From NCBI GenBank assembly GCA_024998815.1, contig JACEUQ010000003.1, positions 259,900-323,899 on the forward strand: 64,000 nt of DNA, given 5' to 3'. Source of the stretch: Opitutus sp. (GTDB taxonomy: Bacteria; Verrucomicrobiota; Verrucomicrobiia; Opitutales; Opitutaceae). The first letter of the stretch is position 1, and each line of letters begins with the position of its first letter. Below are positions 19,756 through 48,256 of the stretch, piece after piece. The position numbers and the translations under genes are program-made. The notes beneath the pieces were generated by a model. It saw only the letters and a program-made list of their open reading frames with translations. It searched no databases and was not told the origin of the DNA.

Positions 19756-19772
19756 GACGGCCTCCCTCGCGC

Positions 19773-20279: not shown

Positions 20280-20554
20280 GACGAGGAGGAAAAGAGGGGG
20301 ATGGAGAAACGAGTGCGGGCCGCAACCCATGAAGCGGGGATTCCCCTGTATTCGGCGCAAACCCCTTCCGGCTTAAGCCCAAATCAGCAAATGCTCTAGA
20401 TTGGGTGGTTTTTAAGGTGTTTTCCGGCCCCTGAGCGGCCCGAAGCGCTAGACCGGAAGGGGACATGCGGCTCGCCCCACCCACCCTGAGCTCACGCTCA
20501 GGGCCTGGAGTTTGGCCCCAAAAGCAGGTGGATGCGAAGCGGCCGGAGGCCCGG

Positions 20555-21997
20555 TTACGCAGCGCGGAAGAGTGCTTCAGCCAAGAAGGGTGGCGCTTTT
20601 GATGAGTTCGTGGAGGGAGGGTCGGTCGACGTGAAGTCGGAGAAACTCTCTGGGGCGATCTGGTCGGCCCAGCATTCGCTGCGCAGGGTGCGCAAGAGGT
20701 CCCCCGTGGAACTGGTCGCAGGCGAGGCGCCCGAAGAGTGCGTGCGCCATTTGGGCGGGCGAAGATGCGGCGGCGGATCAGGGGTTTGCCCCGCAGGATC
20801 GCCGAAGAGCAGGGCGGCGATTAACAACAGCGCATAGGCGGCGACGGTGGCGGCGGGTTGGTTGCGGTTGGAGGCGGCGGTGCGCAGTTGTGCCTGGCCG
20901 GTGCCGATCAGGGTTTTCTCATCCCGGAAGTTTCCCTCGATGCCCCAACGCCAGAGGTAATACTGGAGTTGGTCACCCACGGGCATATCCGGGTCGGTGC
21001 AAACCAAGAAGGCAGGCTGGCGATAGAGCAGCTTCGAGCCTGCGCGCAATCGGTAGCCCACCGGGGCGATCACCATGACTTGCAACGGGAGCGTCGCCCC
21101 GGCTTTACGCCACAGCACCGGCCCGAGGGTCTTGATTTTAAAGGTGTGCTTTTTTCCGGCCGCATAAGCCTCGACGCTTTGCCAGGCCACGGTGTCGTCG
21201 GTGCGCAGCTCTTCCGGGGTCTGGACCGGCGCGCCATAGACCGGCGGGCGACCGGTGGCCGCGGGTGGTCCAGGCAGGGCGTTGAGCACGGCGTCCCGGC
21301 GGATCCGGCCGATATAAACGGTCTTGGCGGGCAGGCCCTTGAGTACGACCGCATTGGTGTAACTGTCATCGCCGGCGACCACCAGTTTGCGCGTGTCTGG
21401 CAGCGCCTGGCGAAGCTGCTGGATGCGGGCGAGCGCGACGACATTAAGCCGCTGCTGTTTTTTCTTCTCCGTGTACTGCTGAACCTCGTCGGTAGTGGCT
21501 TTTTTACCCGGCTTTGGCGGCGTCGGCGCGTGGGTGAAATCCACCGGAATCATCCGGGCGTGTCCGTCGGAACCAGGCCAGGCCGCAGAGAGTTGCACAT
21601 AGCGCTGGCCGCGCACCAGGTTGGTTTGGAACGCGGGGCCGAGCGGATCGCGTTTCCAGCCGACGCCGTCGATCTTGACCCCGGTTTTGCGTACCAGGGT
21701 GTCATCGATGGCGGCCACCAACGGGGTAAGCGCCGGCAGGTTTACCTCAAGCTCATGGAGGACCGTGCGGAAAAGCCCCGCCGGCTTCACCCGGTCACGC
21801 GAATACAACCGGTAGTCGGCCGTCCAGTCCTGCTGGGCACGCCCGCACAGACAAATCAGGTTGGTAAGAGTCCCCCGGCACGGTGAAACCAGTGCCGCCA
21901 TGAGATGCCCCTGCAGTCTCCGGGCGCACTCGGGGGCGGCGCAAGCCGCAGCACAAGCCCGTTTCATAAGTCGTCCCAGCCGATCGGATAAACCCAA
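20555..21997 (-). CDS. DDE transposase (IS701-like/DDE_5-type); frame actually opens at the slippery site 22009
   Basis: AAIDDTLVRKTG, VVAGDDSY, YLWRWGIEGNFRDEK. Confidence 0.88.
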   Translation of the reverse strand: MGLSDRLGRLMKRACAAACAAPECARRLQGHLMAALVSPCRGTLTNLICLCGRAQQDWTADYRLYSRDRVKPAGLFRTVLHELEVNLPALTPLVAAIDDTLVRKTGVKIDGVGWKRDPLGPAFQTNLVRGQRYVQLSAAWPGSDGHARMIPVDFTHAPTPPKPGKKATTDEVQQYTEKKKQQRLNVVALARIQQLRQALPDTRKLVVAGDDSYTNAVVLKGLPAKTVYIGRIRRDAVLNALPGPPAATGRPPVYGAPVQTPEELRTDDTVAWQSVEAYAAGKKHTFKIKTLGPVLWRKAGATLPLQVMVIAPVGYRLRAGSKLLYRQPAFLVCTDPDMPVGDQLQYYLWRWGIEGNFRDEKTLIGTGQAQLRTAASNRNQPAATVAAYALLLIAALLFGDPAGQTPDPPPHLRPPKWRTHSSGASPATSSTGDLLRTLRSECWADQIAPESFSDFTSTDPPSTNSSKAPPFLAEALFRAA

Positions 21998-22221
21998 CTG
22001 GACTTTTTTTTAACGCCTACGTCCACCAGCTCGGGCGTGACCGGCATAACGGGCGCGACCAGACTGCGTGAGAGGACCAAATGATGCGCGTCGGTGACGG
22101 TCCACTCGACGGCCTCCGACTTGGCGAACCCCATCGTCTGGGCGATGGAAGCGGGTAATGTCACATACCACTGCTCACTGTTTTTGCGGATGATGCGCTG
22201 AACTTTGGTGGTGGTGCTCAT
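21964..22221 (-). CDS. AbrB/MazE/SpoVT-type DNA-binding domain protein (IS orfA)
   Basis: KVQRIIRKNSEQWYVTLPASIAQTMGFAKSEAVEWTVTDAHHLVLSR; 85 aa; overlaps orfB across A_AAA_AAG. Confidence 0.75.
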   Translation of the reverse strand: MSTTTKVQRIIRKNSEQWYVTLPASIAQTMGFAKSEAVEWTVTDAHHLVLSRSLVAPVMPVTPELVDVGVKKKSSWVYPIGWDDL

Positions 22222-22325
22222 GGTCCGACACCATCGTTCATGGCCACGCTTTTTCCCATGGGCCCGACGCCCCATTTATCTCTACGGCCTTCTCCGGGCC
22301 AACTAGTCAGAGGCCAAACTCCAGA

Positions 22326-22593
22326 CCTTGAGCTCACGCTCAAGGCCACGTTCGGGCGGGTGCGGCCTGGAGTGTGCCTTTGCCTGGGTGGCTTTGGCTC
22401 GGTGTGGCTTCGTGCGTGAGCACGAGGTGTTTTTTCTGGCTGCGGTGCGCCGAATCCTTGAGCTCACGCTCAAGGCCACAAGGAGTGTGTTCGCGAAGAG
22501 TGTGGCCTTGAGCGTGAGCTCAAGGATTCGGCTGATCTGCGTTCGACTAGTCAGGGGCCAAACTCCAGACCCTGAGCTCACGCTCAGGGCCAC
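22326..22593. repeat. Cluster of four REP-B units plus a solo IS right end (22546-22568)
   Basis: REP-B at 22326, 22456, 22502, 22570; ACTAGTCAGGGGCCAAACTCCAG matches the IS right end with 1 mismatch. Confidence 0.9.
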
Positions 22594-22669
22594 GCCCGGC
22601 ACGGGAACTCGTTTGTGATCGGGCGCTAAAAATCCTGTCCTTTCCCCGGCGTTTGCCTATCTCCGGCTG

Positions 22670-23773
22670 ATGTCGTCTTCCCTCCTCAATCTTTATGGCC
22701 TTACCCGTGCCGAACTCGGTGCGCTGGTGAGCGGGTGGGAGATCAGCCCCGTGCACGCGGCGCGGCTCTGGCGTTACCTTTACCTCGATGGCGCCGTCAG
22801 CCTGGCCGATATGCCGGAACTGCCCGCGCGGTTGCGCGCGAAGCTGGAGGCCGAAACCACGTTTGGCCACTTGGCAACCACCCGGGAAACCCATTCTAGT
22901 GATGGGTTTACCCGCAAATACCTGCTCGGCCTCCACGACGCCCACCTCATCGAAACCGTGCTGATGCGCTTCAAGGGGCGCACCACCGCGTGCATCAGTT
23001 CGCAGGTGGGCTGCGCGATGGGCTGCGTGTTTTGCGCCACCGGCCAGATGGGTTACACCCGCCACCTCAGCGCCGCCGAGATCGTCGCGCAGGCCGTTCA
23101 CGTGGACCGGGTGTTGCGCTCCACGGCACTGGACGCACCGGCGTTGTCCGAGGGCGCGCACGCCTCGCCTCACCACCGCCACGAGCGCCTGCGCAACATC
23201 GTGCTCATGGGCATGGGCGAGCCGTTGCACAACTACGACTCGGTCATGAAGGCCGTGGACATCCTGTGCGATGGCACCGGCATGGCGTTGGGGGCCAAAA
23301 AAATCACGCTTTCCACCGTCGGTGTGGTGCCGGGCATCATCCGCATGACCGATGAAAAACGCAGCGTGTGCCTCGCGGTTTCGCTGCACGGCGCGACGCA
23401 GGCCGAGCGCGCCGCGTTGGTCCCGGCGGCGCGCGCCTGGCCGCTGGAGGCGCTCATGGAAGCCTGCCGCTATTACACCGAAAAGTTGGACCGGCGGATT
23501 TTCTTCGAGTGGACGCTCATCGAGGGCAAAAACGACGGCGCCGAACAGGCGCATGCGGTGGGCGCGCTGCTCAAGGGCATGCAAGCGCAGGTGAACCTGA
23601 TCCCGCTCAACCCGACCTCCGGCTACACGGGCGCGCCCAGCCACACCGGGGCGGCAAAGGCGTTTCAAACGGTTCTGGCGGGCTATGGACTGCCGAGCAC
23701 GGTCCGGCAGCGGCGCGGCATCGATATCGGCGCCGGTTGCGGCCAGTTGGCCGTGGCGGAGAAGACGAGGTGA
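22670..23773 (+). CDS. rlmN: Dual-specificity 23S rRNA/tRNA methyltransferase RlmN
   Basis: CISSQVGCAMGCVFCATG (radical SAM), VLMGMGEP, AVSLHG, GIDIGAGCGQL. Confidence 0.95.
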   Translation: MSSSLLNLYGLTRAELGALVSGWEISPVHAARLWRYLYLDGAVSLADMPELPARLRAKLEAETTFGHLATTRETHSSDGFTRKYLLGLHDAHLIETVLMRFKGRTTACISSQVGCAMGCVFCATGQMGYTRHLSAAEIVAQAVHVDRVLRSTALDAPALSEGAHASPHHRHERLRNIVLMGMGEPLHNYDSVMKAVDILCDGTGMALGAKKITLSTVGVVPGIIRMTDEKRSVCLAVSLHGATQAERAALVPAARAWPLEALMEACRYYTEKLDRRIFFEWTLIEGKNDGAEQAHAVGALLKGMQAQVNLIPLNPTSGYTGAPSHTGAAKAFQTVLAGYGLPSTVRQRRGIDIGAGCGQLAVAEKTR

Positions 23774-23780
23774 GCGGCGG

Positions 23781-23961
23781 AAAGTAGCGCAGACTTCCAG
23801 TCTGCTCCGGTGGCCAGGGCCGGACTTCAATCCATTTGGCCGCGAAGGATCGCAGAGAACGCATAGAAATACAGGTGGATTGTTCTTTGCGCTCCTTGCG
23901 TTCTTTCGCGGCAAAACTGCCTTGGGTGACTTCGGAGCAGACTTCCAGTCTGCGCTACTTT
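23781..23961. repeat. Composite: REP-A pair enclosing a family-C pair, between convergent rlmN and gltB
   Basis: REP-A arms 23781-23808 and 23934-23961; family C at 23835-23915. Confidence 0.88.
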
Positions 23962-23981
23962 TTCCCCCGCCCCCGAAGCCG

Positions 23982-26900
23982 TTATCCGGCAGGATAACGG
24001 AGCACGGGCTTGGGCGCGTCGGGCGTCGGCGCGAAGGGCACCACTTTCCAGAACTTGGCCACCGTCGCAGCCCAGTCCGCCAGCAACGCCTGCGCATACG
24101 GGCTCGTCGTCGCTTTCGCGTGCGCCGCCACCAGCTGCTTCAGGCTTTCGATTTCCTCGGCCCCGCTCAGGCGCTCCAGGCCGATCATCGCCGGGTTGAT
24201 GTTCTTCGGCAGGCTCTCGGCGGGGTCATAAATGAAGGCCAACCCGCCGCTCATACCGGCGCCGAAATTGCTGCCAGTCGGCCCGAGAATCACCACCGTG
24301 CCCACCGTCATGTACTCGCAGCCGTGGTCACCCACGCCTTCGACCACGGTGGTCGCCCCGGAGTTACGCACCGCGAAACGCTCACCCGCCCGCCCCGCCG
24401 CAAACAGCGTGCCGCCGGTCGCCCCGTACAAGCAGGTGTTGCCCAACAGCGCCTGCTCGTTCCACGCAAAGGTCTCGCTCGGCTTGGGGCGCACGATGAT
24501 CTCACCGCCGTTGATGCCTTTGCCCACGTAATCGTTGGCCTCGCCAATCAGGGTCAGGCGCAGGCCGTTGACCAAAAACGCGCCGAAACTCTGGCCGGCC
24601 GAACCGGTAAAGGTCAGGTCGATCGTGCCCGCCGGCAGGCCTTCGTTGCCGTGCTGGTAGGCGATCTGGCCGGAGATCTGCGTGCCGATGTCGCGGTTGA
24701 CGTTGGTCACCTTGTAGCGGGCAACCAGCCGCGAGGACTCGCCCAGAATGACGTCGCGCGCCTCCTGCAGGATTGCCTCGTCGAGCGAGCCTTCGCCACC
24801 GAAACGCTCGTTGCGCTGGCGGGTGTGGAAACGGTCCGTTTCGCCCGAGGGATCGGGGTTGTGCAACAGGCCGGAGAGGTCGACCAACTTGCTCTTCGGG
24901 TTCGCCGGGTCGTCGATCTGCTCCAAGAGGTCAACGCGACCGACAATCTCGTTGAGGTTACGCGCGCCGAGTTTGGCGAGGTAATGGCGCACGTCCTCGG
25001 CGACGGCGTTGAAGAAGTTGATGATGTTCTCGGGCTTGCCGCGGAACTTGGCGCGCAGGTCTTCGCGCTGGGTGGCGACGCCGACCGGGCAGGTATTCAA
25101 GTGGCAAACACGGAACATCGCGCAGCCGCCGGCGATGAGCGCGGCGGTGCCGAAGTTGAACTCCTCGGCGCCGAGCAACGCAGCGATCACGATGTCGCGG
25201 CCGGTTTTCATGCCGCCGTCGGTGCGCAACGTGACGCGGCCACGCAGGCCGTTCATCATCAGAACCTGGTGGGCCTCGGCCACGCCGATTTCCCAGACCG
25301 AGCCGGCGTTTTTGATCGAGGCGAGCGGCGAGGCGCCCGTGCCGCCATCGTGGCCGGAGACCAAGATGACGTCGGCGTAGGCCTTGGCCACGCCGGCGGC
25401 GACGGTGCCGACGCCGGAGCTGGAGACGAGTTTAACGCAGACCTTGGCGCGCGGGTTAACTTCCTTGATGTCGAAGATCAGCTGGGCGAGGTCCTCAATC
25501 GAGTAGATGTCGTGGTGCGGCGGGGGCGAGATGAGCGTCACGCCGGGCACGCTGAAGCGCAGCTTGGCGATGAGCGGGGTGACCTTGGCGCCGGGCAATT
25601 GGCCGCCCTCGCCGGGCTTGGCGCCCTGGGCCATCTTGATCTCGATTTCCTTGGCGGAAGACAGGTAAGCGGGCGTGACACCGAAACGACCGGATGCGAT
25701 CTGCTTGATCGCGGAGTTGGCGTTGTCGCCGTTGGCGCGGACGTTGAAACGGTCGGGATCCTCGCCGCCTTCGCCGGAGTTGGATTTGCCGCCGATGCGG
25801 TTCATGGCGATGGCGAGAGCCTCGTGCATCTCGGGCGAGAGCGCGCCCATCGACATACCGGCGGTGGTGAAGCGCTGGCGGATTTCCTCGATCGGCTCGA
25901 CCTCGTCGAGGGCGATCGGCGTGGCGGCGGAGAAGCGGATCTTGAGGATGTCCTTGATGGAAACCGGCGCGTGGTCGTCGGCCTGGGTTTTCCACTCGTT
26001 GTAGGATTCGGCAGAACCGCCGGCGCGCACGAACTTGTTCATGGCGGAGACGACCTTGGGGTTCCAACCGTGGAACTCGCCTTCGCCCTTCTTGTTGACG
26101 CGGTAATACCCCTCATTGCCGAGGTCGGCGGGAGCGGAGCTCAGAGGTAAGAGCTCAGAGCTGGGAGCTTGGGGCTGGGAGCTCGGAGCTGGGAGCTCAG
26201 AGCTCTTAGCTCCTAGCTCATAGCTCGCCTCGGGATAAGCGCGGGAGTGGCGGCGGAGGGCCTCTATGGCGATCTCGGGGTAACCGATGCCGCCGATGGG
26301 CGAGGCGGTGCCGGTGAAGTTCGCCTCGATGAGTTTCTTGGAGACGCCAAGGGCCTCGAACATCTGCGCGCCCCGGTAGGAGAGCAGCGTGGAAATGCCC
26401 ATCTTGGCCATGATCTTGAGCAGGCCGGCGTCGATGGTGGTCTTGTAGTTGAGCAAGGCCTGGGCGACGGTGACCGGCTTGGTGGTGGCCCCGGAGGTGG
26501 CCAGACCGGCAACGAGCTCGAGCGCAAGGTAGGGGTTAACCGCATTGCTGCCGAAGGCGAGCAGGGTGGCGATCTGGTGAACGTCACGGGCTTCGCCGGT
26601 CTCGGCCATGAGGTCGGCCTGCAGGCGTAAACCGGCGCGCACCAGCTGCTGATTCACCGCACCGACGGCCAGAAGCATCGGAATGGCGGCCAGCTTGGCG
26701 TTCGCACCGCGGTCGGAAACGATCACCAGCTTGGCGCCGGCCTTGCCGACGGCGGCCTCGGCCTGGGCAGCGAGGGCCTTGACGGCGGCCTCGAGCGCGT
26801 CGGGGCCTTGCGAGGCGTCGAACAGGGCGGGCAGACGCACGACGCGATCCTTCAGGAAGGACACCTCAAAGAGCGCGGCCACCTCGTGGTCGAACAGGAT

Positions 26901-28592: not shown

Positions 28593-28871
28593 GGTAAACG
28601 AAGGTGTAGACGGTACGGTTAAAGGACCCAGGTGATGCAGGAAGTGCGCCGCTTATGGTGAATAGTTACAGGCAGAATAAGGTGCGATTCGTTGGGGCGG
28701 CGAAAGGGAGGCGCAAGCGTAATTTCCAGAGCGAATTGGCGGGGTGTAAAAACCCGTAAAAAACCCCGTGTCGGCGGCCCAGGATTGAGCCTGTGCGGCG
28801 CGGTCCGCCGCTAACAAATCCCGGCGAGTTTGTTCCCTTTCCGTTCCCTTTTTTTAGCTCTCCTCTGACAG

Positions 28872-28924
28872 TGGTGCCCGGGACAGGAGTCGAACCTGCA
28901 CATCTTACGATAAAGGCTTCTAAG
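28872..28924 (-). pseudogene. 3' half of tRNA-Leu(UAG), probable att site of an integrated island
   Basis: Minus strand CTTAGAA-GCCTT-long variable arm-GCAGG TTCGACT CCTGT-CCCGGGC-A-CCA; no D-arm or 5' acceptor strand upstream. Confidence 0.85.
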
Positions 28925-28970
28925 GCACTTACGTAAGTTGCTCCCCACTTGATCTCAAATGCACTTACGT

Positions 28971-30434
28971 CAACGGTGTCCAAGTTTTAGATCTATGGGT
29001 TGGCATAGAGCAGTTTAAGTTGCGGCAGCAGATCTGAAATAGGGCAAGAAGAGAACCAATGTGAGCGCAACCAGCGGAGAAGTTTCACACTGCGCTGAAG
29101 CGGTCGCAATACGGTTGTGAGTAAGGAGCAAAGAAGCCGGTCATTTTTTTTGGCGGTCGCGATTTGGTCGTCTAATCGTTTTTGTTGCCGACGGAGGCCC
29201 GCCTCATTTTTGATTTGATAATCTCGTTCTAATTTTTGCTCAAACAGGACCAGTAGGTTATGGGTTAGGCAAAGAAAATGGGCCTGTATTTGCTTGGCGG
29301 TTGAGCTCGACGCCCACGCCTTGGATTCCTCCAGCTTGTTTTTAAATTGATCGAAAACCTTTTCAATCTCCCAGCGTTTTTTATAAAGCCAGGCGAGAAG
29401 CCCTGGCGGTAAGTCAAAAACGCTGGTGATGAACTCATACACCTCACCACTGACTGGATCGCGGTATCGTATTAAGCGCACACGCACCTGATGGGCGGCG
29501 ATGACTATTTCATCCGCTATGACGCCATGATTAATGGGATCAGCACGATCAAACAACTTCGAAGCGAAGGGCTCAAACAGGAGATTTTCTTTGGTGCGTG
29601 AAAGAAAATAGACGCCGGCAGTTTGCTTCCAGTTATGCCAGAGAGGAAAATCAAGGCCTGCGCGATCCCAGATCCAAAGAACTTTCTTGCCGGTCGGCTC
29701 CCCCATACGCAAAGCATTAGAGCCGAGTCGCTTGATCACGCTCATATCGTGTTCTTTTTTGCCCTCAGTGAGTGCAAGATGTTGCATGGCATGAGTTCGA
29801 ATATTAAGGGCATATAAATGTCCTACCGGCCAACGGCGTTCATCAATTTTCTGATCGTGCGAAGCCGCCCCATGCCAATGACCGTCGCCGGCATAGAGGG
29901 CATAATTATCAACGGCAGCGGGCAGTTCGGTAAAGTTTTCGAGCAGGGCGGTGGCCTGCACCGAAACATCCATTAATAAAGCCAACCTGCGTTCGCTTTT
30001 CAGTACTTCAAAGAAGTGCCCCGTAGCGGGACAAGACTCGAACAAGGAACCGACTTGTTGAAGAAAACCGCGACCGCTTCGAGGATCCGATAGAGCTCTG
30101 GTAATACCAAGCCGAAGGAATGCATCGTCAGTCAATTCCGGGCATTGACGCGCGTACCTAGAAGCGGACGCGAGTCCGGTAAGCGGCCCGAAAAATACTT
30201 CGTTTAAAGCGAGGGGATGAAGTGTAGCCATGAGGCCCAAAAAAATTTTTACATGTGCCTCGTAAAGCCTTATATTGAAGTATTTTAAGGCCAATTAACA
30301 CCCGCCGCAACACACGTAATTGGCATGGCTCGACCCCCAGTCCGTGCTGGTTCGCGACGGCCCCAAAGGGGCGCTTCCGAGCGCTGTGTGACGCCCCCCT
30401 GCACAGAAAATACTTCAAAACTTGGACACCGTTG
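28971..30434 (-). mobile_element. IS4-family insertion sequence (1464 bp)
   Basis: 18-bp TIR CAACGGTGTCCAAGTTTT; no target duplication seen. Confidence 0.85.
28993..30231 (-). CDS. IS4 family transposase
   Basis: YAGDGHW, WIWDRAGLDF, LYKKRWEIEKVFDQFK (YREK-like signature). Confidence 0.88.
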   Translation of the reverse strand: MATLHPLALNEVFFGPLTGLASASRYARQCPELTDDAFLRLGITRALSDPRSGRGFLQQVGSLFESCPATGHFFEVLKSERRLALLMDVSVQATALLENFTELPAAVDNYALYAGDGHWHGAASHDQKIDERRWPVGHLYALNIRTHAMQHLALTEGKKEHDMSVIKRLGSNALRMGEPTGKKVLWIWDRAGLDFPLWHNWKQTAGVYFLSRTKENLLFEPFASKLFDRADPINHGVIADEIVIAAHQVRVRLIRYRDPVSGEVYEFITSVFDLPPGLLAWLYKKRWEIEKVFDQFKNKLEESKAWASSSTAKQIQAHFLCLTHNLLVLFEQKLERDYQIKNEAGLRRQQKRLDDQIATAKKNDRLLCSLLTTVLRPLQRSVKLLRWLRSHWFSSCPISDLLPQLKLLYANP

Positions 30435-30702
30435 TAATCTTAACAAAAACCCGCCCTGGACCCGTGAGCAAATCCGCGCCGCACGCACGGCCCCGCTGAT
30501 TCCTCTGCTGGAAAAACGCGGGCTCAAGTTCGTCGAAACCGGCGGCGGCAATTTTTTAGTTACCGCCTACCCCGGACTCATCGCAAAGGAATCGTACTGG
30601 CGCTGGCCCGAACGCAACTTGAGCGGTAACACGATCGACTTTTTTTGCCAAATCCTCGGCCTGTCCTTCCACGACGCCATGACCAAAATCACGGCATCGT
30701 AA
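30435..30702 (+). pseudogene. 5'-truncated ORF resembling primase/CHC2-like passenger domains of large IS21-type elements
   Basis: WTREQIRAARTAPLIPLLEKRG...SGNTIDFFCQILGLSFHDAM; cut by the IS4 end. Confidence 0.5.
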
Positions 30703-31151
30703 AACAGCCGACGAACCAACTCATCCGCCCGCTGCGGTCGTAATTGCGACCGCAGTACGACCAAAATCCTTACGACCGCCTGAGTCGAAAACACCTGTGG
30801 CGGAACAATGGTCACGGTGAAAAACCGCGCTCCCATCTTAAAAAATCCGCCGGAAACAACGCTTACGGCGGCAACCCAGTTCAAAACCCTACAACCGCTC
30901 GGGTCGGAATGCTTACGACGAAAAATCGGCTGTATCGAAATCCACGCTCTCATCGTATGCCGATAAATCCCCTTGAGCCTGTTTCGCTCAAATTTGTCGT
31001 AACGCTACGACCGGTGCGGGGCAATTTGGCTACAAAACACGACCGCAGTCTGTGAGCGGCGGCGCGAACACCGTCTATTTCTGGCGGTTACAAAATCACC
31101 TGTCGTAAAAGCCGATGACCGGCCCCGCCAGGGGCCGATCATCAGGCCCGG

Positions 31152-34241: not shown

Positions 34242-34642
34242 CGCTGTGCATCCGCCAAGCGTCCCGCCGGTTCAATCTCCACCCATTCGCACCCCTCATA
34301 TCCCCAGCCGGACAGGGAAGAAAACCCACCCACGGAAGAAGAGTATTACTCTTTTTAAGGGGAAGAAGATCCACCGAAGAAGAAGTGCATTCCTAACCGC
34401 CAGAAATAGACGCTTTCCCGCTCGCCGCTCACACGCAGTCCGGCAAAACTTGAAAAAACCCTACGCGGCCAATTTGGCAGTTTTTACGATCAGAAAAAAA
34501 TCGGTAACACCAAATCGGTCGTAATGCTACGACCGGTGCGCGGCAATTTGGCTACAAAACACGACCGCAGTCCGGCAAAACTTGAAAAAACCCTACGCGG
34601 CCAATTTGGCAGTTTTTACGATCAGAAAAAAATCGGTAACAC

Positions 34643-35246: not shown

Positions 35247-35311
35247 TAGAGCCTGTCCCGTGCTTATAAGTAATTGTAAATAAATTACTTATAAGCACGG
35301 AACAGGCTCTA
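35247..35311. repeat. 65-bp near-perfect hairpin with IS-like termini
   Basis: 29-bp arms TAGAGCCTGTCCCGTGCTTATAAGTAATT, 1 mismatch, 7-nt spacer. Confidence 0.9.
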
Positions 35312-35338
35312 ACTAAGTGCCATTCGGGTCAGGCATGA

Positions 35339-36046: not shown

Positions 36047-36050
36047 GGCC

Positions 36051-37685: not shown

Positions 37686-37687
37686 GA

Positions 37688-40839: not shown

Positions 40840-40877
40840 TGAGACCGCGCAAAAAAAATGGCGAGTTGCACGAAATT

Positions 40878-42149
40878 TCATGTTGTTTTCAAACGTTTGA
40901 TGGAGCGGATTTCATTTATGCTGGCGGCCCATTGAGCGCCGATTGCAGCCTGGCGCGCCGCTGCGGTTCGTCTGGCGCTGGGATAATCCTTCAGCCAGCC
41001 TTCGATGGATTTCCACAGATCATTCACAGAGGTTTCCCCGATTTCAAAAAACCAGTCGCCCATGCCGAGATCCCGCCACATTTGACCCTTGATCGTATCC
41101 GTCGGCTGCCGAAGGTAGATAATCGGGGTGCCGGATATCAAAGCAAGGATTGGAGAATGGTTTTCGATACTCACAATGCTGTGGGCAGCCGCATAGACAG
41201 CCAGAGCCTCATCGGGGAGCCAGTAACGCTCGAGCCATACTGTCTTCGCCCGGACATCCTCCGGCATAAGGTCGTAGATGGTGGTTTTGGCAAGCGGCAC
41301 CTCGTAGGTCATTTCCGGGCAAAGAAGCACCTTTTTGCCTGTTTCCCTCACCCACCGAACGACGAGATCGGCGAGCAGTCCCATGTCGTGGGCTTGCGTG
41401 CGGTTGTTCACTGCATCCTTCGCCTTGGTCGCGGCATCTTCGGGCACCCAATCGTGCATGCGGTGGTAAGGGGTGTAGCGCAGGCGAGGAACCACACAGA
41501 GGTAGTCATTCTTTATGAGTTCGTGCTCACGAAGGAAATCATTCGCCGCCTTCGGAGCCGCAGGGGCAAAGCCAAAGGTCGCATCCGCACCGAAAGCGAC
41601 ATGCCCGCTGTGGAGCCCGAACTTTTCCAAAAAGCGCTTGGTGAGTGAATCACGGCAGTAGATGAGGTTGGCCGACTGAAAAACGGATGTCTGGAGATCA
41701 TTCAGGCTGTGGTGGGGCATGCTTTCGATCTGCTGCGAGAGCTGCTCGAGAGTTCCACCTTCCCAATTCCCGGTTTGCATCGGCCCGGTGGGGTCCATGG
41801 TTATGCCGAAAAGCACGCTGGGCTTGCCGGTTTTTTCGTTCCAGATCCTCAAATCGCGAGCCACGATCAAGCCCGGCGCGGAACCGTGCACATAAATGTC
41901 GCATTCAGTAAATGCACGACGTAGTGTCTCGCTATCCGGCTCGCCCTGTTCGTTCAGCGTTCCCTCGGCCAATCGAATGTCTGGGTAGCTGGAAGTGAGT
42001 TTTTCCCGGACACCACGGTCAATGTTAAGCGGCCAAAGGGTAATTGTGATATCCGGTGCGTATTTTCGAAAAATCTCCAGGAACCCAAAGGTGTGGCCGA
42101 TGTCGCCGATATTGACTGTCTGCCAGGAGGAACGAAGGAGGAGGTGCAT
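40878..42149 (-). CDS. Polysaccharide pyruvyl transferase family protein
   Basis: NIGD, IYCRDSLT, FGADATF, ENHSPILALISGTP. Confidence 0.85.
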   Translation of the reverse strand: MHLLLRSSWQTVNIGDIGHTFGFLEIFRKYAPDITITLWPLNIDRGVREKLTSSYPDIRLAEGTLNEQGEPDSETLRRAFTECDIYVHGSAPGLIVARDLRIWNEKTGKPSVLFGITMDPTGPMQTGNWEGGTLEQLSQQIESMPHHSLNDLQTSVFQSANLIYCRDSLTKRFLEKFGLHSGHVAFGADATFGFAPAAPKAANDFLREHELIKNDYLCVVPRLRYTPYHRMHDWVPEDAATKAKDAVNNRTQAHDMGLLADLVVRWVRETGKKVLLCPEMTYEVPLAKTTIYDLMPEDVRAKTVWLERYWLPDEALAVYAAAHSIVSIENHSPILALISGTPIIYLRQPTDTIKGQMWRDLGMGDWFFEIGETSVNDLWKSIEGWLKDYPSARRTAAARQAAIGAQWAASINEIRSIKRLKTT

Positions 42150-42466
42150 TTTTGTTGATGAGGTAGAACAAGTGGGTGTTTTTGGATCGATTTACAAGAA
42201 GATAGCAGGCGCCGTTCAAGACCACCGACAGAAGGGTGAGCGCGATTCCCTGGAGCGTCTCGGCGCGGTGGCCCGGGTGGCGGCTGAATTCAGTGTTCAT
42301 GTCTGGTCAGGACTCGAGGCGCAGAAACGCACGGTGCCGCCGATGAGCGAGGAGGCGGGATTCCAAGCCTGACGCAGGGTCAACACTGGTTCGGTGGCGG
42401 ATGGGCGGGCCATCCAGCCGGCGAGATCGGACACGACGATCATGGGACAAAGCAGAGGTGTGCGGC

Positions 42467-43591
42467 TCATTTAAGGCAGGGGAGATACCTCTTCACTATT
42501 GATTCGAGTGATGTTGTGGCAACCTCCATGCGCGCGACTAAGTGGAGTTGGTTGCGGGCGCGGTCGAGGTTGTGACCCGGTCGCTTGGTTTTGAAGTAAA
42601 TGTCACCTTGGAGATAATCGGTGAGGAAGCGGATGCCGACCTCGAAGGTCATGAGTTTACCAGCGAAAACCAGGTTCTCCCACTCGGACGGTGTGAGGAT
42701 GTTGCCCGCACCGGCGATGTAGCCTTGCACGATGGCCTCGAAGACGGGGAGCGAGACGTCGATCTTGGACAAATCCGCTTCATCTTCGGCCGCTGTGTTG
42801 GTGGCGAAGCGCACCAGGTCGCCGAAATCGTAGAGCGAAAGTCCCGGCATAACCGTGTCGAGGTCGATAACGCAGATGCCTTCGCCTGTGGCATCATCGA
42901 GCATGACGTTATTGAGCTTGGTGTCGTTGTGCGTGACGCGTTCGGGGATGTGGCCGGATCTCACGAGGTCGAGCAGGCGGCTGGTTTCAGCCTCGCGCTC
43001 AAAGGCAAACTTGAGCTCGGGAAGCACTTCTTTTTTGCGACCGGCCACATCGGCCTCGGCGGCCTTGCGCAACGCCTCGAATCGCTTGGGAGTATCGTGA
43101 AAATGAGGAATGGTCTCGTGCAGACGGGTGCCCGGTAGATCGGCAAGCGATTGTTGAAACAAACCGAAAGCCCTCGCGGCTTCATAGGCTTGCTGAGGAT
43201 TTTCGACGGCATCGTAGGTGCGGGCGTGTTCGACGAACAAATAAACACGCCAATACTCGCCATCCGGAGTCTGGTGAACGGGCTCTCCGGTTCGAGTTGT
43301 CACCAAGACCAAGGCGCGTCGGTTATCACCTTCCGTAACTTTACCGGCTACGTGAGCGGTGACTCGGCCTATGTTCACCATCAGTTGGGGGACGTTTTTG
43401 AAAATCCGGTGATTGATGCGTTGAAAAATATACCGCACCGGCGTGCCGGCTTGGTCAAAGTTGACCACAAAGGTGTCGTTGATGTGGCCGCTGCCGTAGC
43501 GCTGGGCGTCAAGCAGGTTGCCGTGCAAAAGAAAGTGGGAGGCCACCGCGCTCATTGCTTCGCGGGAGGGAGTTTGGGAACGATCGGACAT
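42467..43591 (-). CDS. Aminoglycoside phosphotransferase family kinase, N-acetylhexosamine 1-kinase-like
   Basis: YGSGHINDT, YIFQRIN, TIPHFHDTPKR, RVTHNDTKLNN, VIDLDTVMPG, YDFGD, LRFLTDYL-like EVGIRFLTDYL. Confidence 0.85.
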   Translation of the reverse strand: MSDRSQTPSREAMSAVASHFLLHGNLLDAQRYGSGHINDTFVVNFDQAGTPVRYIFQRINHRIFKNVPQLMVNIGRVTAHVAGKVTEGDNRRALVLVTTRTGEPVHQTPDGEYWRVYLFVEHARTYDAVENPQQAYEAARAFGLFQQSLADLPGTRLHETIPHFHDTPKRFEALRKAAEADVAGRKKEVLPELKFAFEREAETSRLLDLVRSGHIPERVTHNDTKLNNVMLDDATGEGICVIDLDTVMPGLSLYDFGDLVRFATNTAAEDEADLSKIDVSLPVFEAIVQGYIAGAGNILTPSEWENLVFAGKLMTFEVGIRFLTDYLQGDIYFKTKRPGHNLDRARNQLHLVARMEVATTSLESIVKRYLPCLK

Positions 43592-43826
43592 AGAATTTAA
43601 GTGGGTTGGGTAAAGGTAAAGGTGAAGTGGGGTGGGGTGGGGTGGGCGATGCGCGCATTGCTTCAGGTAGCGAAGGACTCGAGGGTGGCTTGTAGTCCCT
43701 TCATTACCCCGTAGGCCGGCTGCCAGCCCGCCGACATCAGCTTTTGAGGGCTCGCTTGGGAGTGGCGGATATCGCCGGCACGCTCCGGGGCGTGGATGAC
43801 GGAAGACGGCGAGCCAGAGCGATCTA

Positions 43827-44941
43827 GTGCTTACTTGCAATAATAAGTGATATTGTATCCGCTTTGTAGATGGGACGAAAAGCCGTGCGAATCACTTGTA
43901 GCGAGGGGGATCAGCAATCCCTAGAAAAACGGGCAACCAGCCGGATTGAGTCGAGGCAGCGAGTTGAGCGCGCCCGGATGATCCTTGGGTGCGTGAGTGG
44001 CGAGCAGGTGCAAGAGGTGGCGCGCCGCTGCAACACCAGGCCGAACACCGTAATAAAGTGGAGGGATCGCTTTGTGCTGCTTGGCATGAAGGGGCTGGAT
44101 GATGCGGCACGGCCGGGCGCGAAGCGCACCTACGGTGAGGACTTTCGAGATCGGGTGCTGGCTTTATTGGAAGGGCCACCCCCTCCGGGGCAGGCGCGCT
44201 GGGATGGTCCAGCGGTGGCCCGTGTGCTCGGCGGCTCGGTGCACGCGGTCTGGCGAGTGCTGCGCAAGGAGGGCATTTGCCTGCAGCGCCAGCGCTCGTG
44301 GTGCGTGAGCACTGACAAGCAGTTCGCAGCCAAGGCAGCCGATATCGTCGGGCTCTACCTGAGCCCACCGGAAAAGGCATTGGTGATAAGTGTGGATGAA
44401 AAGCCTGGCATCCAAGCCCTAGAGCGCGCCACCGGTTACGTGGAGACCGACAATGGTAAAATCGTCCAGGGACTCAAAAGCACCTACAAGCGCCACGGTA
44501 CACTCAACTTGTTCGCTGCCCTTGATGTGGCCACGGGCTTGATCAAGACGCAGAAAACCACCCTTAAGCGCCGGGAGGAGTTCCTGCTGTTCATGGACCA
44601 AGTGGTGGCGGATCACCCGCCCGAGAGAGAACTCCACGTGATTTTGGATAATTATTGCACCCACAAAAAGTGCGACGCTTGGCTCGCTCGGCACCCCAAT
44701 GTCCACTTCCACTTTACCCCAACCTCGGCGAGTTGGCTCAATCAAGTTGAAATCTGGTTCGGCATACTAACAAGGAAGGCGCTACGGGGCGCGAACTTCA
44801 GAAGCGTCGCCGAACTTAGTCAGGCCATTGACGCTTTCGTCGCCGCCTACCTGCCCAATGCCAAGCCGTTCAAGTGGCGCAAGCGCGAGGTCAAGGGAAG
44901 CCAACTCATAAATACTATCATTAATCTACGCAATTAAGCAC
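43827..44941 (+). mobile_element. IS630-family insertion sequence (1115 bp)
   Basis: Ends GTGCTTA(C/A)TTGC; TA duplication in a CTAG target. Confidence 0.92.
43870..44937 (+). CDS. IS630 family transposase
   Basis: SVDEKPGIQAL, YKRHGTLNLFAALD, ILDNYCTHK, TPTSASWLNQVEIWF. Confidence 0.95.
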   Translation: MGRKAVRITCSEGDQQSLEKRATSRIESRQRVERARMILGCVSGEQVQEVARRCNTRPNTVIKWRDRFVLLGMKGLDDAARPGAKRTYGEDFRDRVLALLEGPPPPGQARWDGPAVARVLGGSVHAVWRVLRKEGICLQRQRSWCVSTDKQFAAKAADIVGLYLSPPEKALVISVDEKPGIQALERATGYVETDNGKIVQGLKSTYKRHGTLNLFAALDVATGLIKTQKTTLKRREEFLLFMDQVVADHPPERELHVILDNYCTHKKCDAWLARHPNVHFHFTPTSASWLNQVEIWFGILTRKALRGANFRSVAELSQAIDAFVAAYLPNAKPFKWRKREVKGSQLINTIINLRN

Positions 44942-45483
44942 TAGAATCGTGTGGGCCAGTTCGGCGACGCTCATCGACTGGCCGTAGCCGGCGTTGAACA
45001 CACCGGTCACACCGGGACGTTCTGCAAGAAAGGCGAGGGCGCCGACGATGTCCTTCACATAGATAAAGTCACGGGTCTGCCCGCCGTCGCCAAAAATGGT
45101 GATCGGCTCGTGCGCGACCGCCTTCTGGATAAAAATCGGCACCGCCGCCGCGTAAGCGCCTCGCGGGTCCTGACGCGGGCCGAAGACGTTGAAGAAGCGC
45201 AGAGCGGCGGTTTCGAGCAGGCCCTCGCGTGCATAGAGGGCACAGTAGTATTCACCGTCGAGTTTGGTGATGCCGTAGGGGCTGCGCGGGTCCGGCACCA
45301 TGGTTTCCACTTTGGGCTGCTCCGGGTTTTCGCCATACACGGCGGCAGTGCTCGCAAAGCAGAGTTTTTTCACGCCGTGATTCTTGCACGAGGCCAAGAC
45401 ATTGAGAAGTCCGTGGATATTGATATCCACGGTCTGGAGTTTGGCCCCAAAAGCAGGTGGATGCGAAGCGGCCGGAGGCCCGG

Positions 45484-46926
45484 TTACGCAGCGCGGAAGA
45501 GTGCTTCAGCCAAGAAGGGTGGCGCTTTTGATGAGTTCGTGGAGGGAGGGTCGGTCGACGTGAAGTCGGAGAAACTCTCTGGGGCGATCTGGTCGGCCCA
45601 GCATTCGCTGCGCAGGGTGCGCAAGAGGTCCCCCGTGGAACTGGTCGCAGGCGAGGCGCCCGAAGAGTGCGTGCGCCATTTGGGCGGGCGAAGATGCGGC
45701 GGCGGATCAGGGGTTTGCCCCGCAGGATCGCCGAAGAGCAGGGCGGCGATTAACAACAGCGCATAGGCGGCGACGGTGGCGGCGGGTTGGTTGCGGTTGG
45801 AGGCGGCGGTGCGCAGTTGTGCCTGGCCGGTGCCGATCAGGGTTTTCTCATCCCGGAAGTTTCCCTCGATGACCCAACGCCAGAGGTAATACTGGAGTTG
45901 GTCACCCACGGGCATATCCGGGTCGGTGCAAACCAAGAAGGCAGGCTGGCGATAGAGCAGCTTCGAGCCTGCGCGCAATCGGTAGCCCACCGGGGCGATC
46001 ACCATGACTTGCAACGGGAGCGTCGCCCCGGCTTTACGCCACAGCACCGGCCCGAGGGTCTTGATTTTAAAGGTGTGCTTTTTTCCGGCCGCATAAGCCT
46101 CGACGCTTTGCCAGGCCACGGTGTCGTCGGTGCGCAGCTCTTCCGGGGTCTGGACCGGCGCGCCATAGACCGGCGGGCGACCGGTGGCCGCGGGTGGTCC
46201 AGGCAGGGCGTTGAGCACGGCGTCCCGGCGGATCCGGCCGATATAAACGGTCTTGGCGGGCAGGCCCTTGAGTACGACCGCATTGGTGTAACTGCCATCG
46301 CCGGCGACCACCAGTTTGCGCGTGTCTGGCAGCGCCTGGCGAAGCTGCTGGATGCGGGCGAGCGCGACGACATTAAGCCGCTGCTGTTTTTTCTTCTCCG
46401 TGTACTGCTGAACCTCGTCGGTAGTGGCTTTTTTACCCGGCTTTGGCGGCGTCGGCGCGTGGGTGAAATCCACCGGAATCATCCGGGCGTGTCCGTCGGA
46501 ACCAGGCCAGGCCGCAGAGAGTTGCACATAGCGCTGGCCGCGCACCAGGTTGGTTTGGAACGCGGGGCCGAGCGGATCGCGTTTCCAGCCGACGCCGTCG
46601 ATCTTGACCCCGGTTTTGCGTACCAGGGTGTCATCGATGGCGGCCACCAACGGGGTAAGCGCCGGCAGGTTTACCTCAAGCTCATGGAGGACCGTGCGGA
46701 AAAGCCCCGCCGGCTTCACCCGGTCACGCGAATACAACCGGTAGTCGGCCGTCCAGTCCTGCTGGGCACGCCCGCACAGACAAATCAGGTTGGTAAGAGT
46801 CCCCCGGCACGGTGAAACCAGTGCCGCCATGAGATGCCCCTGCAGTCTCCGGGCGCACTCGGGGGCGGCGCAAGCCGCAGCACAAGCCCGTTTCATAAGT
46901 CGTCCCAGCCGATCGGATAAACCCAA
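45484..46926 (-). CDS. DDE transposase (IS701-like), copy 2
   Basis: Same as 20555-21997 except GDGSY and RWVIE. Confidence 0.88.
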   Translation of the reverse strand: MGLSDRLGRLMKRACAAACAAPECARRLQGHLMAALVSPCRGTLTNLICLCGRAQQDWTADYRLYSRDRVKPAGLFRTVLHELEVNLPALTPLVAAIDDTLVRKTGVKIDGVGWKRDPLGPAFQTNLVRGQRYVQLSAAWPGSDGHARMIPVDFTHAPTPPKPGKKATTDEVQQYTEKKKQQRLNVVALARIQQLRQALPDTRKLVVAGDGSYTNAVVLKGLPAKTVYIGRIRRDAVLNALPGPPAATGRPPVYGAPVQTPEELRTDDTVAWQSVEAYAAGKKHTFKIKTLGPVLWRKAGATLPLQVMVIAPVGYRLRAGSKLLYRQPAFLVCTDPDMPVGDQLQYYLWRWVIEGNFRDEKTLIGTGQAQLRTAASNRNQPAATVAAYALLLIAALLFGDPAGQTPDPPPHLRPPKWRTHSSGASPATSSTGDLLRTLRSECWADQIAPESFSDFTSTDPPSTNSSKAPPFLAEALFRAA

Positions 46927-47150
46927 CTGGACTTTTTTTTAACGCCTACGTCCACCAGCTCGGGCGTGACCGGCATAACGGGCGCGACCAGACTGCGTGA
47001 GAGGACCAAATGATGCGCGTCGGTGACGGTCCACTCGACGGCCTCCGACTTGGCGAACCCCATCGTCTGGGCGATGGAAGCGGGTAATGTCACATACCAC
47101 TGCTCACTGTTTTTGCGGATGATGCGCTGAACTTTGGTGGTGGTGCTCAT
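46893..47150 (-). CDS. AbrB/MazE-type orfA, copy 2
   Basis: Identical translation to 21964-22221. Confidence 0.75.
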   Translation of the reverse strand: MSTTTKVQRIIRKNSEQWYVTLPASIAQTMGFAKSEAVEWTVTDAHHLVLSRSLVAPVMPVTPELVDVGVKKKSSWVYPIGWDDL

Positions 47151-48256
47151 GGTCCGACACCATCGTTCATGGCCACGCTTTTTCCCATGGGCCCGACGCC
47201 CCATTTATCTCTACGGCCTTCTCCGGGCCAACTAGTCAGAGGCCAAACTCCAGCCTCGGCTTTGCCGAGTGTATCGATCAGGCGGGAAAACGGTAGCGGC
47301 GTGTTGATGAACATGTCCGCCATCCGGCCGTAATCGCGCTCGATTTCGGCCACTCGATGGGCTGGCGGAACGAGGCGTAAACTGCCCGGTATCGCCAAGT
47401 CGTAGTGCGCCCAGCTCGATGCGAAAAAACGGCTTTTGTGACGAACGACCCGAGCCAGCACATCAAAGCGAGTCAGGGCCGCTGCACTGGTTGGATGCGT
47501 CAGCAGGGCGGCAAAATCGGAGTAGTGCCGCGAGAAGCGGTCGCGCATCGGCTGTTCGGCCGGCCGGTGGTATTCAGCATGAAGGATGGTCGCCTTTTCC
47601 CAGAACGTGCGCTCCACCTCCAAGGCGACGACGCCACCATCGGGGGCGACCATTTCATGCGGGAATTCCTCCGCCACGATGGAGCGGACCGTGTGGTTTC
47701 CGGTGGGCTGTTGATCGGTGAGGGAGCCAAACTCGACCTTCACCTCAGGCCGCACGTAGGTCTCGTAAGGCACGGCGACCGGATAATGAAACAGAATGAC
47801 CGGCGAATGGGTGGCCGGATCGATGATGGCTTCGATTTTCCATGAGCGAGCAGGTAGGTTGCCCAGTTGCACCGAGAGCGCTTCGGTAATCAGCGGGGCG
47901 ATTTGGTCGCGCACAATCTCGGCACAGCGCGCCTCCAGTTGCTTTTGATTTTTATCGCGCTGTGTGCGCGAGGCCGCGTCCTCCAAGGTGGATTCGGCGA
48001 TGCCGAGGAAGGCAGGGCTGAGCGAAAGGTCGATGTCCTCCGAGAAACGGGCGATGATGTTAAAAACCTTCGAGAGGGAGGTGCCTCCTTTAAAGACCAG
48101 GTGCGGTCGCAGGGTGGGCAGAGCGAAAATTTCACGCAGCAACCAGCACACCCAGAAATCTTTTTCCACGAGCCAGGGGCGCACGCCACGACGGGCGGCC
48201 GCTTCGGTGAAAAACGCGGTATGATCGGCTACGGGGAGGCGGGCAAAGTTACGCAT
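47147..48256 (-). CDS. AbiEii-type nucleotidyltransferase toxin; native C-terminus replaced by IS sequence
   Basis: VEKDFWVCW, LVFKGGTSLSK, RFSEDIDL, RTFWEKATILH, SRHYSD; native part ends at 47254. Confidence 0.9.
   Translation of the reverse strand: MRNFARLPVADHTAFFTEAAARRGVRPWLVEKDFWVCWLLREIFALPTLRPHLVFKGGTSLSKVFNIIARFSEDIDLSLSPAFLGIAESTLEDAASRTQRDKNQKQLEARCAEIVRDQIAPLITEALSVQLGNLPARSWKIEAIIDPATHSPVILFHYPVAVPYETYVRPEVKVEFGSLTDQQPTGNHTVRSIVAEEFPHEMVAPDGGVVALEVERTFWEKATILHAEYHRPAEQPMRDRFSRHYSDFAALLTHPTSAAALTRFDVLARVVRHKSRFFASSWAHYDLAIPGSLRLVPPAHRVAEIERDYGRMADMFINTPLPFSRLIDTLGKAEAGVWPLTSWPGEGRRDKWGVGPMGKSVAMNDGVGP

Follow-up and report, generated by a model that had tools for sequence, protein, structure and literature searches.

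Palindromic target-site duplications and probable target choice by DNA secondary structure in an insertion sequence clade related to IS701

The insertion sequence (IS) considered here is present in two copies in a 64,000-nucleotide stretch of Opitutus sp. DNA (positions 259,900 to 323,899 of contig JACEUQ010000003.1; this whole stretch is called the window), and it belongs to a large DDE clade related to IS701 and IS4, whose members are ~1.75–1.85 kb long, have the terminal inverted repeat (TIR) CTGGAGTTTGGCC and carry an AbrB-like orfA (an assignment qualified below) linked to orfB by an A8–A9 run. Comparison of the direct repeats that flank related copies shows that insertion takes place at the foot of a stem-loop, symmetrically about its dyad, and that the whole palindrome, usually with one additional nucleotide on each side, is directly repeated around the element. 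The reading favored here, to which a probability of roughly 0.8 is assigned, is that the clade picks its targets by DNA secondary structure and duplicates the hairpin, the palindrome probably being extruded during target capture.

Hairpin duplications in relatives and in the window

Relatives were collected by protein-guided scans of one genome per species, which supplied 18 loci and then 80 of 373 loci; boundaries were placed by copy-versus-copy alignment in three multi-copy genomes and by TIR pairing elsewhere. The relatives share 41–88% amino-acid identity, most are 1732–1878 bp long, and nearly all loci examined end in the same TIR or a closely related one. They are distributed over Verrucomicrobiota, Planctomycetota, Acidobacteriota, Bacteroidota, Desulfobacterota, Chloroflexota, Gemmatimonadota and other phyla, and a protein search returned at least 2136 homolog clusters, named in their sources 'IS701 family transposase' or 'SRSO17 transposase'.

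Among these relatives 37 independent copies are bracketed by perfect direct repeats of 12–30 bp (mostly 18–25 bp), and every one of the 37 target-site duplications (TSDs) is palindromic, with its dyad exactly at the midpoint of the repeat. When a centered stem of five consecutive pairs is demanded, 33 of the 37 pass, compared with 0.5% of random k-mers. The outermost position of the TSD is unpaired and the stem starts from the next base in 23 of 37 (27 of 37 if one internal mismatch is allowed). Similarly, for the first 40 IS ends, taken from the window and from relatives, the best stem lies at an offset of 1 nt in 33, 0 nt in five and 2 nt in two, against a background in which a perfect stem of at least 6 bp occurs at offset 1 in 0.5% of random positions. 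A sequence-only reading of the window had proposed that the hairpin is itself the target duplication, that duplications are therefore long and variable, and that structure rather than sequence is recognized; the uniformly palindromic TSDs of relatives with the same TIR bear this out.

The origin of the hairpin is made clear by one long-read Opitutales chromosome, in which 13 identical IS copies (L040–L052) have 13 different hairpin TSDs of 18–25 bp; the hairpin thus comes from the target, and the possibility that it is carried by the IS is ruled out. At least seven TSDs contain an internal stem mismatch that is identical on both sides of the element (L032, L041, L043, L045, L051, L052, L074), which is what a staggered cut repaired from a template would produce. 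The GC content of the hairpins ranges from 0.31 to 0.81 across the 37 TSDs, no sequence is common to them, and a T-run follows in 2 of 37; this spread and the rarity of T-runs imply that there is no sequence motif, and that the targets are neither one repetitive extragenic palindromic (REP) family nor simply terminators. Fourteen further ends, belonging to metagenome variants of 87–96% identity, behave alike and adjoin all three palindromic repeat families of the window genome. One diverged copy, in a metagenome-assembled genome (MAG) labeled Opitutus sp. GAS368 (CAMBUJ010000067.1; L001:362 and L016:2675, on one contig), was retrieved by an exact search for the left end; it is bracketed on both sides by CGCCGCCGAAGGCGGCT (C-GCCGCC-GAA-GGCGGC-T), a 17-bp direct repeat in which a fourth hairpin, unrelated to the others, is extended by 1 nt at each end. 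The interior of this MAG copy is broken by unrelated AT-richer DNA from IS position ~870 to ~1360, reflecting either a nested insertion with deletion or a misassembly.

The IS copies of the window, their ends and the adjoining hairpins are listed below, the ends being defined by comparison of copies 1 and 2 and by exact TIR matches.

20505–22324, minus strand: IS copy 1, 1820 bp, with minus-strand transposase genes
45434–47253, minus strand: IS copy 2, 1820 bp, with orfB at 45484–46926 and orfA within 46893–47204
20505–20517, plus strand: copy 1 TIR at the transposase-distal end, CTGGAGTTTGGCC, exact match
22312–22324, minus strand: copy 1 TIR at the orfA-proximal end, exact match
22546–22568, minus strand: solo orfA-proximal IS end of 23 bp, ACTAGTCAGGGGCCAAACTCCAG, differing at 1 position from those of copies 1 and 2
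20483–20504, plus strand: copy 1 left flank, A, then REP hairpin 20484–20503 (CCCTGAGC-TCAC-GCTCAGGG), then C
22325–22346, plus strand: copy 1 right flank, A, then REP hairpin 22326–22345 (CCTTGAGC-TCAC-GCTCAAGG), then C
22569–22590, plus strand: REP beside the solo end, A, then hairpin 22570–22589 (CCCTGAGC-TCAC-GCTCAGGG), then C; identical to 20483–20504
22456–22527, unstranded: inverted REP doublet (REPIN-like) separating copy 1 from the solo end; its identity to the doublet at 17944–18015 is 93%
45411–45433, plus strand: copy 2 left flank, perfect palindrome with a 10-bp stem at 45411–45432 (CCGTGGATAT-TG-ATATCCACGG), then T
47254–47269, plus strand: copy 2 right flank, C, then a hairpin with a 6-bp stem at 47255–47269 (CTCGGC-TTT-GCCGAG), inside the 3' end of abiEii (minus strand)

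The two copies differ at 2 positions over 1820 bp in pairwise comparison, and the 13-bp TIR has exact matches at 20505, 22312–22324 (minus), 22556–22568 (minus), 45434 and 47241–47253 (minus). All five IS ends lie exactly 1 nt from the base of a perfect stem-loop, and the hairpins, of three unrelated sequences, comprise three members of the local REP family (CCYTGAGC-TCAC-GCTCARGG), the palindrome in the epimerase gene and the hairpin in abiEii. DNA folding of the five flanks leaves a single unpaired nucleotide toward the IS, with dG of -6.0 to -9.4 kcal/mol and z of -3.0 to -5.5. This geometry, including the three unrelated hairpins and all coordinates, had been described in the sequence-only reading and is confirmed by direct reading together with folding; its two gene assignments agree with Pfam profiles, the epimerase fragment matching positions 87–240 of 240 and AbiEii positions 1–232 of 238. 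Both the solo end and the junction of copy 2 with abiEii are found again in a second draft assembly. The palindrome to the left of copy 2 encodes, on the minus strand, the residues TVDINIHG of the truncated NAD-dependent epimerase (44921–45433), and because intact homologs carry matching residues at this position (E[CT]VDINV[HN]GLLNVLE) it can be regarded as native coding sequence that predates the insertion. The REP to the left of copy 1 ends after the first C of its tail and lacks the conserved CAC, while 16 of 16 other window REPs keep their tail (CCAC in 15, CTAC in one); the junction falls within the conserved REP unit, and the REP therefore resembles a partial duplicate generated by a staggered cut.

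Several observations weigh against this picture or limit it. The distance from stem to end is not strictly 1 nt and ranges from 0 to 3 nt: in 6 of 37 TSDs the outermost bases pair, leaving 0 nt outside the stem, and a few have 2–3 nt outside a perfect stem. The strict 1-nt rule of the sequence-only reading thus describes the typical case but is not absolute, and one end (L103:2021) has no obvious hairpin and is a possible exception. In many short metagenome contigs the hairpins at the two IS ends differ from each other, which could reflect recombination or assembly chimeras. Some stems are only 4–5 bp long (L018, L072, L017) and would not extrude spontaneously as cruciforms. Empty-site searches recovered no unoccupied site for any copy, and the duplication is accordingly read from flanking repeats rather than from before-and-after pairs; an exact look-up of the window transposase gave no match, look-ups of RlmN and AbiEi led to no assemblies other than drafts in which the junctions are unchanged, the rlmN allele expected without the IS had 0 matches in metagenome contigs when a gapped pattern was used, and restoration of open reading frames (ORFs) by removal of the IS with one TSD was uninformative, as high-GC genomes contain many spurious open frames. 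In the window itself no copy has a clean TSD, and the window alone cannot prove that the hairpin is the target duplication, because the REPs around copy 1 differ and the flanks of copy 2 come from two genes. The two REPs that flank copy 1 differ at 2 positions that form a compensatory pair (CCC..GGG versus CCT..AGG); this may be chance variation between REPs, or it may hint that one arm is corrected against the other. Finally, the 22-bp repeat around 20505–22568 that the sequence-only reading emphasized is a real identity (20483–20504 equals 22569–22590), but it only may be a TSD: the same 22-mer occurs again at 3966, 12863 and 15178 in a scan of the window, being carried by 3 of the 15 other window REPs, since it is the commonest variant of the 17-copy REP family.

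Two side observations touch the compensatory pair: an imperfect REP that joins both arm types (CCCTGAGC..GCTCAAGG, equal to CCCTGAGCTCACGCTCAAGG) sits at 17944, and the flanks of L008 show a compensatory indel similar to that of the copy 1 REPs.

Proposed mechanism and alternative explanations

By standard DDE chemistry the two 3'-OH ends of the IS would each attack the 5' foot of the hairpin, one on each target strand, and gap repair would then copy the hairpin to both sides, giving a TSD whose length equals that of the hairpin plus about 2. The geometry suggests that the palindrome would probably be extruded as the target is captured, either into a cruciform or into hairpins that protein induces on the two strands, and extrusion would set the two scissile phosphates a fixed short distance apart at a four-way junction. 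Extrusion is considered probable because attack points 12–32 bp apart in B-DNA would be unsuited to one transpososome. A comparable outcome appears as pathway b in Figure 13 of the IS1272 model, where joining of 3' ends at the 5' feet duplicates the whole stem-loop, and where it was proposed as a possibility (PMC5678879). The broadest version of the proposal holds that this is the first DDE clade in which TSD length is set by target secondary structure, that a four-way junction is captured or induced at any palindrome, possibly by way of a clade-specific AbrB-like OrfA, with the ends joined ~1 nt outside the stem, and that the clade is undescribed although it occurs in hundreds of species of roughly ten phyla; taken as a whole, this version is given about even odds.

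The readings that compete with extrusion of duplex DNA differ in the form of the target. Instead of arising as a supercoil-driven cruciform, the hairpin might form in transiently single-stranded DNA (a lagging-strand template, a transcription bubble or an R-loop), with the two ends possibly joined sequentially. This would suit the use of short and imperfect stems, and recognition of hairpins in single strands is established for integron attC sites and for IS200/IS605. A further precedent is given by RAYT proteins and REPs (PMC2817692). The symmetric duplication would nevertheless require mirror attacks on both strands, for which a four-way junction is the simplest substrate, and the single-stranded route is thus a tentative possibility, rather unlikely. 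A different proposal dispenses with unusual structure altogether: a symmetric transposase dimer would read dyad-symmetric B-form DNA and cut with an unusually long stagger. Every TSD is exactly dyad-centered, 4–5 bp stems form cruciforms poorly, and weak palindromic target consensuses are common in DDE transposons (Tn5 and Tn10 as discussed in PMC1525189; P element, PMC2577343), all of which is compatible with such a dimer. The half-sites have no common sequence, however, and leave self-complementarity alone to be read, while the stagger, from 12 to 30–32 bp, tracks the edge of the palindrome within ~1 nt and would demand a variation in active-site spacing of ~60 angstroms and about two helical turns; an explanation in terms of B-form DNA is accordingly judged improbable.

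The remaining explanations question whether the hairpin as such is targeted and duplicated. Sequence-specific targeting of REPs, as by IS1397, ISPpu9/10 and ISPa11, would make the hairpins incidental, and it agrees with the fact that three of the five window ends adjoin one REP family and that metagenome variants of the IS also adjoin the two other palindromic repeat families of the genome. It is very improbable nonetheless, given that copy 2 adjoins two non-REP hairpins inside coding genes, that the 37 TSDs of relatives have no common sequence and span GC contents of 0.31–0.81, and that known REP-targeting elements insert inside the REP with direct repeats of 0–6 bp (PMC1525189) and not around it. 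Insertion into the loop with a short stagger, after which the broken arms fold back and self-extend to regenerate a hairpin on each side, would account for the compensatory pair at copy 1, for which the imperfect REP at 17944 is of the required type, and the compensatory indel at L008 is similar. Such a process would make all stems perfect, yet at least seven TSDs are mismatched identically in both copies, and asymmetric loops are duplicated in direct rather than inverted orientation; as a general mechanism this route, too, is very improbable. The chance that the pattern is accidental or an assembly artefact is practically negligible. Chimeras or artefacts are plainly present among the short metagenome contigs (in L094, for example, the flanks are mutual reverse complements), but the observed frequencies of 33/40 and 33/37 stand against ~0.5% in controls, and long-read chromosomes, a complete isolate genome and, for the window loci, two independent draft assemblies all show the pattern.

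If the duplication of an extruded hairpin is correct, its consequences extend beyond this element. The TSD length of DDE transposons is usually treated as a family constant that derives from active-site spacing; here it would be set by the fold of the target, implying a transpososome that works on a DNA junction or hairpin, and the stem-loop duplication pathway, so far only hypothesized for IS1272, would have a natural instance in the clade. As the hairpin (a REP or a terminator-like structure) is kept intact on both sides, a low-cost safe-harbor strategy is suggested. Doubling of the hairpin would also create a self-reinforcing hot spot, explaining tandem copies, and it offers a possible route for multiplying REP-like elements. 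Head-to-tail tandem IS copies with one hairpin between them are found at L002 (860–4462) and L027 (330–420); the sharing of a single hairpin indicates that a duplicated hairpin is re-used as a target, and clustered or nested arrangements are to be expected. At one tandem junction of L002 there is an extra A, and in L003 and L090 the last TSD base beside the orfA-proximal end is A instead of the expected base, which may reflect occasional imprecision at that end. In practical terms, IS annotation tools that seek short fixed TSDs will mis-call the ends and miss the duplications, and NCBI models score the clade just under their cutoff; the enzyme could serve as an in vivo probe of extrudable palindromes or as a tool for structure-directed integration.

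Element proteins, family placement and known systems

The genes of copy 1 are as follows.

20555–21997, minus strand: orfB, DDE transposase, an ORF of 480 amino acids (Pfam DDE_5, 1.5e-10; NCBIfam transpos_IS701_3, 1.5e-45)
21964–22221, within 21964–22275, minus strand: orfA, small upstream ORF (MSTTTKVQRIIRK...); 71 of 72 related IS copies carry an OrfA-like region
22003–22011, minus strand: A8G run (AAAAAAAAG on the minus strand) at the orfA/orfB overlap, with orfB in the -1 frame

OrfB scores above the Pfam cutoff for DDE_5 (41.6 against 27), and its best NCBIfam match, transpos_IS701_3, reaches 155.9 bits, under the curated cutoff of 170; the transpos_IS701 model gives 34 bits against a cutoff of 150 and the IS4 hidden Markov models (HMMs) 33.6 against 152, and no IS1182 model is among the NCBIfam matches at E<0.01. 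The catalytic residues D98/D99, D210 and E354 and a complete YREK motif (Y347-R350-E354-K361, with the exact spacing Y-(2)-R-(3)-E-(6)-K) are invariant in an alignment of ten relatives (A1), and the element shows the general traits of DDE transposons, namely the triad, the 13-bp TIR and, in the 37 relatives, direct repeats. The only two differences between the window copies place non-consensus residues beside catalytic ones: copy 1 near 21367 (IS position 958 in transposase orientation) reads GDD, with D211 where the consensus has G after the catalytic D210, and copy 2 near 45873 (IS position 1381 in the same orientation) reads RWVIE, with V352 where the consensus has G/D, before the catalytic E354. 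For this reason both copies may be impaired, with an active master copy possibly elsewhere in the genome.

orfA ends in ..VKKK at the A8G run, and the ORF coordinates give a frame offset of 278 nt (278 mod 3 = 2). The run is likely to be a frameshift or transcriptional-slippage site: a -1 frameshift, or one A added by slippage, would yield ...VGVKKK-VQLGLSDRLGRLMKRAC..., that is, an OrfAB fusion. OrfA and an A8–A9 run are kept in 71 of 72 relatives, with the run at the equivalent place in nearly all, and this conservation suggests programmed frameshifting or transcriptional slippage, which would be unusual for IS701-type elements. Twelve of 17 OrfA sequences match PF04014 (SpoVT/AbrB/MazE) weakly (best E 6e-4, under the gathering score), and an AbrB-like DNA-binding domain is plausible but not established; a PDB profile search with OrfA gave nothing significant, and a single-sequence AlphaFold model of it (pLDDT 48.8) was too poor for use.

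The label IS701-like, as used in the sequence-only reading, can be kept insofar as IS701 models match best (transpos_IS701_3, DDE_5) and public annotation names the proteins 'IS701 family transposase', but the published descriptors of that family do not fit. Canonical IS701 elements have a TSD of exactly 4 bp, a length of 1.4–1.55 kb, a single ORF and a YREK motif mostly without Y (PMC2266710), whereas the clade has TSDs of 12–30 bp rather than 4 bp (or the 5 bp of the ISAba11 group), ~1.75–1.85 kb and two overlapping ORFs rather than a single one in 1400–1550 bp, and a complete YREK that includes the usually missing Y. The last descriptor is not absolute, as 4 of 27 IS701 members have the Y (PMC2266710). 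The IS4 family (sensu De Palmenaer 2008) is characterized by a complete YREK together with TSDs of about 8–13 bp; the clade has the motif, and its TSDs are neither fixed nor in that range.

The nearest relatives on sequenced plasmids, in Rhizobium and Sinorhizobium (Rhizobiaceae; L100–L102), have 27% amino-acid identity and provide an outgroup. This element, annotated only as 'transposase', has a related TIR, CTCGACTTTGTACA (CTSGASTTTG), and a single ORF without orfA, and its three copies have fixed 5-bp TSDs (CTGAT, CTTAG, ATGAG) and no hairpins. Since the outgroup that lacks orfA makes 5-bp TSDs, the hairpin-length duplication is taken as derived within the orfA-bearing clade. A contribution of the OrfA domain to structure recognition is speculative and is a correlation only; that the link between OrfA and hairpin targeting depends on one outgroup comparison weighs against it.

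Long or variable TSDs, far above the usual 2–13 bp, occur in IS1634, IS1549, the IS1202 group and IS1182 ('DR 0-60'), and the IS1202 subgroups, some of which abut XerCD sites, have fixed TSD length classes. To our knowledge, none of these four has a TSD length shown to equal that of a target stem-loop. Folded hairpins are recognized by enzymes outside the DDE class, such as the integron integrase IntI at attC and TnpA of IS200/IS605. Recognition of hairpins by RAYT proteins at REPs is likewise structure-specific (PMC2817692). All three rely on tyrosine-recombinase or HUH chemistry and recognize a hairpin that belongs to the mobile element or cassette itself; in the present clade the hairpin is the host's, and a DDE enzyme targets and duplicates it.

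Insertion sequences that target REPs (IS1397/ISKpn1, ISPpu9/ISPpu10, ISPa11, ISRm22 and IS621) resemble the window IS in accumulating in REPs (PMC1525189, PMC8450116). They use one REP sequence at a fixed internal position and make repeats of 0–6 bp, whereas the clade accepts any hairpin, lies outside the stem and duplicates the whole REP hairpin. The closest functional analogue is IS1272/TnSha1 (IS1182 family, staphylococci), a DDE system that, like the clade, targets stem-loops, among them terminators and palindromes within genes, regardless of primary sequence (PMC4923244, PMC5678879). IS1272, however, removes the hairpin wholly or partly and makes no TSD (PMC4923244, PMC5678879), where the clade keeps the hairpin and duplicates it; it also lacks the orfA and slippery run that the clade has, its transposase family is different, and it is staphylococcal, while the hosts of the clade are mostly Verrucomicrobiota, Planctomycetota, Acidobacteriota and similar phyla. 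IS1272L carries an extra duplicated terminal repeat (PMC5678879), which recalls the solo end at 22546–22568. In the full-text literature no account was found of palindromic or hairpin TSDs in IS701-like elements or of the TIR CTGGAGTTTGGCC, with the proviso that curated IS catalogues fall outside this scope and that their curators may already know of them. The clade is widespread in poorly studied phyla and apparently undescribed.

Hybrid flanks and the neighborhood of the window copies

The simplest reading of copy 2, whose two flanks come from different genes, is that it arose by homologous recombination or IS-mediated rearrangement between two insertions, of which one lay in the epimerase gene and the other in abiEii. 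This predicts two reciprocal partners, one that runs from an IS end through N-CCGTGGATATTGATATCCACGG-T into the 5' third of the epimerase gene, and one that has C-CTCGGCTTTGCCGAG-N and an IS end ahead of the distal end of abiEii; the predicted TSDs of the parents are shared repeats of 24 bp and 17 bp. In the complete genome of Luteolibacter sp. Populi (CP161812.1) the copies L033 (1.53 Mb) and L034 (6.10 Mb) have reciprocally swapped hairpin flanks, one being a 32-bp palindromic repeat that contains one mismatch, the other a hairpin of the GCGGCTCGGAGAGCCGCG type. To judge from these flanks, the swap implies a large inversion through IS–IS recombination in this cultured isolate, which would be convenient as an experimental host, and its reciprocal character provides a precedent for hybrid-flank copies such as copy 2 of the window.

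Two origins are entertained for the arrangement at copy 1. A 2064-bp unit (20505–22568), comprising the IS, a REP, the REP doublet and the second right end, may have moved into a REP with a 22-bp TSD, and extra terminal repeats on a mobile unit have precedents in IS1272L and TnSha1 (PMC5678879). The intact IS may instead be a recombinant that lies beside the remnant of an older insertion, the two 22-mers being independent REPs.

Candidates for further IS ends in the window were rejected. Of the TIR-like 13-mers at 16008, 32749 and 36020, the first was unremarkable when read and the other two have two mismatches and no second end at IS distance; about 2.2 such matches are expected by chance per window. 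A left-end-like motif, CCTGGAGTGTGCC, near 22368, which would make 22370–22568 a miniature inverted-repeat transposable element, has no adjoining hairpin and matches the TIR poorly. An Rfam search of the window found no RNA family.

The surroundings of copy 2 look like a rearranged integrated mobile element, to judge from their gene content. An IS630-like transposase gene (43870–44937; DDE_3 and helix-turn-helix domains) borders the truncated epimerase gene at its 3' end, and after copy 2 (47254–52107) lie an AbiEi-like/AbiEii pair and a TrwC relaxase-helicase.

The window contains two other palindromic repeat families besides the REPs, namely GCAGACT-TCC-AGTCTGC and the long AAAGTGTCACCTAATAGGTGACACTTT (1038–1118, 19692–19758, 23777–23961; 1781–1833, 4104–4156), and metagenome variants of the window IS adjoin both of these non-REP families (L103, L105, L109). 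At 12763–12912 three direct REPs with an exact 50-bp period, of which units 1 and 2 are 98% identical, form a tandem array of a REP-containing unit. A 77-nt exact repeat occurs with a spacing of 132 bp (34434 and 34566), and a related 62-nt repeat is found at 30989 and, between the two copies of the former, at 34511; the repeats at 30989–31050 and 34434–34642 are AT-richer than the surrounding DNA.

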